A DNA stretch of 64,000 bases from Candidatus Micrarchaeota archaeon (GTDB lineage Archaea; Micrarchaeota; Micrarchaeia; Anstonellales; Bilamarchaeaceae): NCBI GenBank assembly GCA_038046805.1, contig JBBSVO010000003.1:93963-157962 (forward strand), given 5' to 3'. The notes below the pieces were generated by a model. That model searched no databases, had not been told where the DNA came from, and was given only the letters and a program-made list of their open reading frames with translations. The position numbers and the translations under genes are program-made. Below are positions 4,253 through 5,357 of the stretch, piece after piece (the stretch's first letter is position 1; each line of letters opens with the position of its first letter).

Positions 4253-5191
4253 ATGGAAGTTCTGGTTACTGGCGGAGCCGGTTTCATCGGCTCGAATATT
4301 GTTGAAAGATTAATTTCAGAAGGTCATTCAGTTACTGTCATAGACTGCCTTAACACGGGAAGTGAAAACAACCTCGCAGGAGTGCGGGACAAAATCAAAT
4401 TCGTTCGTGGGAATTCCGGCGAGATTGAAAAACTCGTAAGTGGAAAAAAATTCGATATCATCCTCCATCAGGGGGTTTACTCTACTTCTCCATTATATAA
4501 GGAAAACCGCTTGCTCACCGCAAAGGCTCTGGAAGAATTTATCAACATACTTGAATACTGCACTAAGAACGGAACGCGACTGGTGTTCGCGTCGTCTTCT
4601 TCTCTTTACAATGGAGTAACTCCTCCGCACCGCGAGGATGCTCAAATCAATGTAACAGACTTTTACAGCGAAGCAAGACTGGCGATGGAAAGAGTCGCAA
4701 CATTATACCATCAGCTTTATGGAACGAAAATAATTGCCCTCAGGTATTTCAGCGTTTACGGGCCTCATGAAGAGGCAAAGGGAAAATATGCAAATCTCAT
4801 AACCCAATTCTTATGGGCAATGATGAAAAACGAGGCACCCGTAGTCTATGGAGATGGTTCACAGACAAGGGATTTCGTCTTTGTCAGCGACATCGTTGAG
4901 GCAAACATGCTTGCAATGAAAAGCCCGCTTGAGTTCGGAATTTTCAATGTTGGAACCGGGCGCTCTGTTTCGATAAACGGGATGATTGAAATTTTGAACA
5001 ACAAGCTCGGAACGAAACTACCAATAAAATACGTTGAAAATAAGGTGAAGAACTACGTGGCGCACACGCAGGCCGACACCTTGCTGACAAAAACAAAGCT
5101 AGGCTTTTCTGCAAAGACATCGCTTGAGGAAGGAATCGAAAAACTGATTGAATACACCAAGTCTCGGGCGTATACTGAACCAAATAAGTAA
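4253..5191 (+). CDS. NAD-dependent epimerase/dehydratase (UDP-sugar 4-epimerase-like)
   Basis: Rossmann motif VLVTGGAGFIGSN directly after the ATG at 4253. SDR-extended family layout. The ORF-track TTG start at 4208 abuts the tRNA and is unlikely. Confidence 0.85.
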   Translation: MEVLVTGGAGFIGSNIVERLISEGHSVTVIDCLNTGSENNLAGVRDKIKFVRGNSGEIEKLVSGKKFDIILHQGVYSTSPLYKENRLLTAKALEEFINILEYCTKNGTRLVFASSSSLYNGVTPPHREDAQINVTDFYSEARLAMERVATLYHQLYGTKIIALRYFSVYGPHEEAKGKYANLITQFLWAMMKNEAPVVYGDGSQTRDFVFVSDIVEANMLAMKSPLEFGIFNVGTGRSVSINGMIEILNNKLGTKLPIKYVENKVKNYVAHTQADTLLTKTKLGFSAKTSLEEGIEKLIEYTKSRAYTEPNK

Positions 5192-5357
5192 TACCGATTC
5201 GGAATATTAGCATTTATCTCGATGGTTCAGTATCCAGTGATCTGCTGATCACTAGCTGTTCACCAATGTGGTGAACATAGATCGAGCCATCTACAACTTC
5301 GAAGAAGTTGGAGAGACAGAGAATGCAATTCTCTGGGAAAAACTTATTTGGCTCGGG
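5170..5357 (+). repeat. structured repeat element, copy 1 (overlaps the last codons and stop of the epimerase gene)
   Basis: Both ends are homologous to the reverse complement of 49159-49254. Contains four perfect 6-7 bp hairpins and a 10-nt terminal inverted repeat, CCAAATAAGT (5180-5189) / ACTTATTTGG (5342-5351). Confidence 0.6.

Follow-up and report, generated by a model that had tools for sequence, protein, structure and literature searches.

Two short stretches of a 64,000-nt window of a Candidatus Micrarchaeota genome (contig JBBSVO010000003.1; G000:C3:93963-157962; the window is this whole stretch), one at 5.2 kb (copy A) and one at 49.2 kb (copy B), are very probably copies of a non-autonomous mobile DNA element, similar to a miniature inverted-repeat transposable element (MITE) and specific to one family of Micrarchaeota. 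The genome concerned (G000) comprises 1.2 Mb in 16 contigs, with a G+C content of 42.5%. An initial annotation of the window had described the two stretches as inverted copies of a structured repeat and had offered two explanations, a small non-autonomous mobile element or a conserved RNA of a 3' untranslated region (UTR). The former is supported by the presence of multiple copies, by their patchy occurrence among relatives and by TA-flanked sites, including that of copy B, which are filled in one congener and empty in the other. The latter is at odds with the copies lying in both orientations relative to their neighbours and abutting gene starts more than gene ends, as well as with copy B being antisense and missing in the sister species. 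A literature search returned no description of this element family; the family is previously undescribed, while the kind of element is ordinary.

The two copies and their family

On re-reading of the sequence, 24 of the 28 nucleotides of 5170-5197 agree with the reverse complement of 49227-49254, as annotated, and further on both copies contain, in identical order, the blocks TGGTTCA..ATAGATCGAG and GGAAAAACTT..CTCGGG. The copies, like the nested modules described below, were compared by eye. The limits of the element had to be redrawn, however, and run from TA to TA at 5171-5361 on the plus strand (copy A) and at 49253-49156 on the minus strand (copy B). Both of the copies that had been proposed are real, but the genome contains about 20 members of the family.

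Copy A spans 191 nt, its greater length being due to two other small twin-hairpin modules nested in a core of ~98 nt. Its hairpin P1 (5171-5233, plus strand) has the 5' arm TATACTGAACCA(A) and the 3' arm TGGTTCAGTAT, with the conserved block AAGTAATACCGATT in the loop. Module 1 (5234-5276, plus strand) sits after P1 and comprises CAGTGATC..GATCACTAG and GTTCACC..GGTGAAC, which were recognized by eye and are predicted to form hairpins; it was found neither in copy B nor in most other copies. A linker ATA and hairpin P2 follow (5277-5359, plus strand; GATCGAGCCA ... TGGCTCGGG), the latter being broken by module 2, which lies in its loop (5290-5338, plus strand; CAACTTC-GAAG-GAAGTTG, GAGAGA and CAGAGAAT-GCA-ATTCTCTG). 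According to BLAST, module 2 is found again in three further copies and in the copy at the epimerase locus of a congener, each time in the P2 loop, and it also occurs alone at G000:C6:230259-230301 and C13:40539-40580. The nested modules are members of other small repeat families of this genome. A twin hairpin of the module 2 type was also observed in frame in an ATP-dependent DNA ligase gene (G000:C6:230259-230306), where it adds ~17-18 residues (TSKEGGAKGPSTSQKLEGQRT) directly before the conserved LRFPR motif in comparison with the Sulfolobus and human ligase structures.

Copy B (49156-49253, minus strand) is 98 nt long and carries no nested modules. From its sequence, the P1 arms were placed at 49253-49240 and 49203-49190 and P2 at 49187-49160, all on the minus strand, where the codons YTEPTK-stop were read with no gene attached, in agreement with the annotation. 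The predicted fold of copy A has an energy of -66.8 kcal/mol (z = -6.5) and that of copy B -28.6 kcal/mol (z = -5.4), with the opposite strand of copy B being about equal (z = -5.2).

A covariance model, R1, was built on the alignment of eight insert-free copies, with copies A and B left out. It matches copy B at E = 5.8e-16 and, with E = 1.9e-6, the part of copy A that includes P1 and the nested hairpin pair (its first half, 5168-5272), so that chance is far exceeded. Further copies on other contigs had been located by BLAST and motif scans. R1 finds about 20 distinct copies on nine contigs, with E-values down to 1e-19, and they fall into two subfamilies. The consensus of subfamily 1 is TATACTGAACCAAnnAAGTAATnCCGATT ... 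TCGTTGGTTCAGTATAGATyGAG-hairpin-CTCrGGATA and that of subfamily 2 is TATATCAAACCAACAAAGTTTTTCGGAG ... GGTTGGTTTGATAGA-GCGAACC..GGTTCGC-TATAA. The core element measures 94-96 nt (5'-TAC(T/A)GAACC ... CTC(G/A)GGA-3') and its ends are flanked by TA (TA-TACTGAACCAAC ... GTTGGCTCAGGA-TA). Imperfect terminal inverted repeats of ~17 nt are present (TATACTGAACCAAC against the reverse complement of GTTGGCTCAGGATA, 14/18); as judged by eye, left and reverse-complemented right ends agree at 13-14/18 positions in copies C6a and C6b and at 10/10 positions subterminally in copy A. A 10-nt inverted repeat had been annotated as terminal in the latter copy. The repeat itself is genuine, CCAAATAAGT (5180-5189) being the reverse complement of ACTTATTTGG (5342-5351), but it does not lie at the very end and represents the best-matching part of the longer imperfect repeat. 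The element is non-coding, with stops in several frames (e.g., TAA in AAGTAAT), and just short tails are read from it.

Concerning its distribution, 24 genomes of the GTDB family to which G000 belongs were searched with R1, and 10 of them gave matches, ranging from one to more than 73 per genome; 16 genomes from other families of the order gave none. When 141 genomes sampled evenly from the phylum were searched, matches were likewise confined to that family. Even close relatives differ, since genome G051 has 17 matches while its congeners G003 (95% complete) and G065 (93% complete) have none. In a high-copy genome, several matches lie at contig ends. A scan of collections with a 17-nt degenerate pattern was unspecific, most matches arising by chance in unrelated bacteria, and the 18 viral matches to this pattern fail the R1 model. 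With respect to clustering, three copies were seen in one 400-nt intergenic region (G000:C2:125556-125953), the first belonging to subfamily 2, another having a 5' half that has diverged and the remaining one lying in inverted orientation.

Insertion sites and the end of the epimerase gene

The congener G001 offered a direct view of insertion. The 25 element-bearing loci of G001 were set against the whole G000 genome, and nearly all of them were found to be empty in the latter. At seven loci with clean junctions (L081, L079, L089, L075, L076, L080, and L073), the empty site has one TA and the filled site reads TA-element-TA. At L081, for example, the empty G000 site is AGTCGT-TA-TATGCG and the filled G001 site AGTCGT-TA-[TTCAG...CAGGA]-TA-TATACG, while at L079 the empty G000 site is AAATAAAT-TA-ACCGTG and the filled G001 site follows the same pattern. 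Of 47 copies, 44 are preceded by TA and 42 are followed by it, and the base before the left TA is A in 32.

The reverse situation holds for copy B. In G000 it lies antisense between two plus-strand genes, a membrane-protein gene (stop at 49153-49155) and dtdA, and spans the gap from the membrane-protein stop to 13 nt before the dtdA start (49267), the junction being TTTGA-TA-[element, antisense]-TA-CAACGGTGCTCAC-ATG. The corresponding site of G001 is empty, with the membrane-protein stop and the dtdA start 6 nt apart (GTGTGA-TTGATT-ATGCC). By this comparison, copy B split a tight two-gene pair and widened a junction of 6 nt to ~110 nt. A different kind of variation between the congeners concerns toxin-antitoxin-like gene pairs (G000:C4:110675-112143 against L074; L086:628-1436), which are present in one congener only, the other having just an element copy, or nothing, at the site. 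As named from their translations, the pair in G000 is nucleotidyltransferase AbiEii/AbiEi-like and that in G001 consists of a PIN-like protein and a small antitoxin.

At the 5.2-kb site, copy A together with the probable remnant of an older copy replaces the last codon and the stop of an NAD-dependent sugar epimerase gene (4253-5191, plus strand, within the open reading frame [ORF] 4208-5191), the nearest relative of which is found in the Micrarchaeota metagenome-assembled genome (MAG) UBA10214 (88% amino-acid identity). The annotation had noted that the repeat overlaps the last codons of the gene (YTEPNK-stop), and this is indeed the case, the ORF terminating with ...SRAYTEPNK-stop and the first 21 nt of P1 of copy A doubling as the Y-T-E-P-N-K-stop codons. 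In the orthologs from other Micrarchaeota that were compared (L002, L003, and L005), the C-termini read ...LIKAYS-stop or ...LVEHYS-stop. Outside the genus the orthologs stop at Y-S, about 10 codons earlier, which bears out the proposal that the element supplies the C-terminus and the stop codon. In G001 (L001) the element starts at the TA of the same Tyr codon, giving ...EYSQPIK-stop inside its own element copy. In G000, the TA of the Tyr codon (5153-5154) is followed by a 16-nt stretch and then by TA and copy A, giving ...EY-TKSRA-YTEPNK-stop. Judging from L001, this 16-nt stretch between the ancestral TA and copy A (CACCAAGTCTCGGGCG, 5155-5170, plus strand) is probably an older copy that lost its middle and kept its left and right ends, corresponding to the copy that the congener carries here. 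The last 12 codons of the gene (5156-5191, T-K-S-R-A-Y-T-E-P-N-K plus stop) derive from the remnant and copy A.

The sequence CTCGGGCGTA is present, as had been reported, at 5163-5172 and again at 5352-5361, where it represents the right end plus TA of the remnant and the right end plus TA of copy A, respectively. This direct repeat is not the target duplication, which for the family would be TA, and the remnant accounts for it only in part.

Other gene ends and neighbours deserve mention. G001 has a second element copy ~200 nt upstream of the epimerase gene (L001:1191-1294), which is not in G000. A 188-aa ORF (G000:C7:132818-133384) ends with ...RRYTEPVIVIY-stop, its tail coming from a solitary left end TATACTGAACCA, with the rest of the element not recognizable. 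In the window, a 415-aa ORF (2613-3860, plus strand) shows in translation a C-terminal GGDEF-type signature (RYGGEEFAIIA), which suggests a diguanylate cyclase, an enzyme uncommon in archaea.

Hairpins, mobilising enzyme and rival explanations

RNAalifold on the eight-copy alignment predicted two hairpins, P1 and P2, with double-sided changes in 7 of 22 pairs. In an alignment of 64 distinct copies from at least eight genera, fitted to the R1 model, which favours pairing, 94.7% of the cells were paired against 80.0% in shuffles, and 15 of the 22 pairs had changed on both sides. The covariation score was 0.378, compared to 0.135 in shuffles (0/500 reach it) and at most 0.068 with partners slid. 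In the same copies P1 was 95% paired, with 7/13 pairs changed on both sides, and P2 97% paired, with 4/5 outer pairs changed on both sides. The P1 variants ACTG/CAGT, TCAG/CTGA, ACAA/TTGT, and ACAC/GTGT are evident in the raw sequences. Where the left end varies, the changes are matched by changes in the internal 3' arm of P1 and not in the right end, and the two hairpins are therefore conserved independently. P2 amounts to a shorter version of the P1 stem.

The element would be mobilised in trans by a transposase that recognizes its ends and integrates it at TA, with A-TA preferred as the left flank, and the TA would thereby be duplicated. The copies would persist as selfish DNA where they do little harm, i.e., between genes and behind or in stop codons, and the in-frame stops of the element may give genes a short tolerated tail. 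As to the class of the enzyme, a DDE transposase of the IS630/Tc1 type would have not quite an even chance, a hairpin-reading single-strand enzyme of the HUH/Y1 type is possible with lesser weight, and the remainder is assigned to neither.

Several observations weigh against a MITE-like element moved in this way. Neither an autonomous partner nor a parent insertion sequence (IS) or transposase with the same ends was found in the genomes searched, which are 71-95% complete and in which insertion sequences often fail to assemble. The hairpins covary internally and not end with end, which is unexpected for a plain DDE-type MITE. Moreover, G-T pairs outnumber A-C pairs on the element strand, 52 to 16 (one nearly invariant T-G column excluded; binomial p ~1e-5 over copies that share ancestry), and this excess points to a single-stranded stage on the element strand, as DNA or RNA. 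The flanking TAs would also look the same whether 2 nt were duplicated or an element with TA as its own end inserted next to a TA. Finally, the 10-nt repeat at copy A is explained only in part, as both occurrences of CTCGGGCGTA have CG in place of the consensus A, for which gene conversion at the locus or an aberrant duplication may be responsible.

The searches for an enzyme covered Y1, TnpB, DDE_1, DDE_3, rve, mariner, and IS1595 genes, and they revealed no matching ends and no gene tracking the element. The IS630 model PF13358 (DDE_3) gave no match in 25 genomes, while it matched five control genomes. PF01359 (mariner) gave none in 5 genomes, a zero that is weak given that the control genomes were silent too. 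The rve and IS1595 models yielded nothing common to the element-bearing genomes, and no transposase adjoins the left ends that stand alone (G000:C3:49610 and C7:133355). A single Y1 (IS200/IS605-type) transposase gene was found in G000; it lies in the window (40440-40913, minus strand, 157 aa). TnpB genes occur in G000, G001, and G020. Three hairpins of the form GAACG-N6-CGTTC were noted in the Y1 leader (40938-40991, 41118-41139). They belong to a second abundant repeat, with ~50 perfect 7-10-bp hairpins nnnGAACG-N6-CGTTCnnn genome-wide, often paired and REP/REPIN-like, the outer stem bases of which covary; in the window they occur, e.g., at 4003-4024, 22436-22489, 29068-29117, 32153-32174, 32232-32255, and 40938-40991.

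The alternative that survives best, and that we regard as possible while not favouring it, is that the element moves as single-stranded DNA through an HUH/Y1-type enzyme, IS200/IS605- or RAYT-like, with two similar hairpins read on one strand. Insertion would then take place 3' of (A)TA without true duplication, the right-hand TA being part of the element. Consistent with this are the compensatory changes that hold each hairpin separately, the excess of G-T over A-C on the element strand, the likeness of the P1 and P2 stems (CTGAACCAAC and TTGAGCCAAC) and a central TATAG that can pair with either terminal TA. The target also looks asymmetric, with A before the left TA in the majority of copies, as given above, and T after the right TA in ~46% by our own count. 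In addition, IS200/IS605 has been reported as the commonest IS family in Micrarchaeota (PMC13343696), and the element and a Y1 gene occur together in G051 but are both missing from its congeners G003 and G065. However, the Y1 gene of the window has end hairpins of a different sequence (ACGGCT..AGCCGT; ACGGCTttAGCCGT upstream and CCACGGCTtcAGCCGTGG downstream, flanks 40414-41200). None of the Y1 or TnpB genes has an R1 match next to it, and the surroundings of the Y1 genes of G051 and G020 show no hairpin resembling P1 or P2. Y1 was not found in G002, G004, and G009, which have 4-14 element matches, and is present in G006 and G010, which have none. Furthermore, one of the 47 copies shows TG, and copy A shows CGTA, at either end, which is the pattern expected of a true duplication.

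A broader variant, which we consider rather doubtful, is that the mobilising machinery or the cell recognizes the hairpins as such on one strand, i.e., that a hairpin-dependent single-strand transposition system is at work whose enzyme is not recognizable as IS200/IS605 and is a host, viral or unrecognized protein, or else that the element is a portable RNA or promoter module suited to the promoter regions of a compact genome.

It seems improbable that the copies are primarily structured-RNA genes or cis-acting parts, such as a small RNA, a 3' UTR stabiliser or a portable promoter or leader, with mobility being secondary. The strong covariation and the G-U excess on one strand would suit such a role, as would the loop blocks kept across genera (AAGTAAT.CCGATT and GGTTTTATCTCG). 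So would the position of copy B, which ends 13 nt before the dtdA start and has a TTATTTAG box ~30 nt upstream of that start, and the tendency of the copies to adjoin gene starts more than gene ends. For 59 copies, as estimated by crude ORF calling, the neighbour on the 5' side reads away from the element in 31 cases and towards it in 15, and the neighbour on the 3' side starts after the element in 30 and converges on it in 15; divergent gene pairs surround the copies in 14 cases and convergent pairs in 2. An outward promoter within the element is accordingly a possibility on sequence grounds. On the other hand, the A-TA target preference alone would put copies in AT-rich promoter regions and at stop codons, and in such surroundings it is enough to explain the gene-start bias. 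A promoter at the TATA-like start of the element would leave P1 without its 5' arm. Copy B folds equally well on either strand, the orientation relative to neighbours is mixed, positions show no synteny between congeners, and match counts vary from 0 to more than 73 among close relatives. Rfam 15 provided no family match for the element at gathering thresholds and nothing credible around either copy at E up to 10. These scans returned solely 5S rRNA and noise, while a tRNA scan gave a single match, tRNA-Gly at 1197-1271.

Other RNA candidates were set aside. The Micrarchaeota splicing endonuclease has broad specificity, and an archaeal bulge-helix-bulge (BHB) intron was considered and ruled out, since the P1 helix runs uninterrupted and lacks the two 3-nt bulges, and since no such motif arises from pairing of the element's two ends. 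C/D-box, H/ACA, hammerhead, and similar motifs were not found in the consensus.

The idea that one stretch is merely a local duplicate of the other, or that two AT-rich sequences are alike by chance, can be dismissed almost entirely in view of about 20 copies on nine contigs and hundreds in relatives, with E-values to 1e-19.

Significance and comparison with known systems

The family described here, with its consensus, ends, target, fold model and distribution, is an addition to the poorly charted mobile DNA of DPANN archaea. It illustrates that dozens of these insertions can be accommodated even in 1-Mb genomes whose genes are only a few bases apart, and it provides concrete cases of gene remodelling, i.e., a new C-terminus and stop for an epimerase and a gene junction extended from 6 to ~110 nt. 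On the practical side, such repeats break assemblies, and in Micrarchaeota MAGs they produce false candidates for structured RNAs and wrongly called gene ends; the covariance model may be used for masking them. The separate covariation of the hairpins and the missing transposase also raise a modest question of how such elements move.

MITEs are known in archaea, e.g., SM1-SM4 of Sulfolobus (PMC10969869), and a large MITE census places DPANN among the archaea with the highest MITE density (PMC11602168), with no mention of Micrarchaeota in the text consulted. The element resembles SM1-SM4 and other archaeal MITEs as a non-autonomous archaeal element, a likeness of kind, no relation in sequence being expected. 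The closest matches are the TA-flanked bacterial MITEs RUP (repeat unit of pneumococcus), Correia/NEMIS, and ERIC (PMC2229807), which are ~100-155 bp long, non-coding and present in many copies. MITEs of the RUP type, in which the target TA is duplicated, share with the Micrarchaeota element the TA termini, the inverted ends and the stable stem-loops, and they are mostly intergenic and sometimes fused to reading frames. RUP itself has stop codons in all frames and ends that match IS630-Spn1 (PMC2229807). In the RUP type, however, the hairpin is formed by the two ends pairing, while here the left end pairs internally (P1) and the right end has its own hairpin (P2). Additionally, no IS630-type gene or IS with matching ends was found here, and the host is archaeal. 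In this respect CIR of Caulobacter and Brucella (PMC2229807) is closer, as its 5' and 3' halves fold as independent stem-loops and its termini are TA; it differs in having no terminal inverted repeats and in carrying a methyltransferase site, and it comes from another domain of life with no sequence relation.

The IS200/IS605-derived PATE and the REP/REPIN-RAYT system are similar with regard to strand-specific subterminal hairpins with compensatory change, the presence of a Y1 gene in the genome and insertion beside a short fixed sequence that resembles the right end of the element. They differ in that the end hairpins of the resident Y1 gene are unlike those of the element, Y1 does not track the element, and the ends may also be read as inverted repeats with a TA duplication. 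Finally, RPE of Rickettsia (PMC2229807) offers a parallel for the epimerase gene, since it consists of small palindromes that join the reading frames of housekeeping genes in a reduced genome. RPE inserts in frame and is translated through, whereas the Micrarchaeota element carries stops and truncates or replaces the C-terminus; the in-frame insertion reminiscent of RPE that was seen in the DNA ligase gene is one of the nested twin-hairpin module, not of the element.

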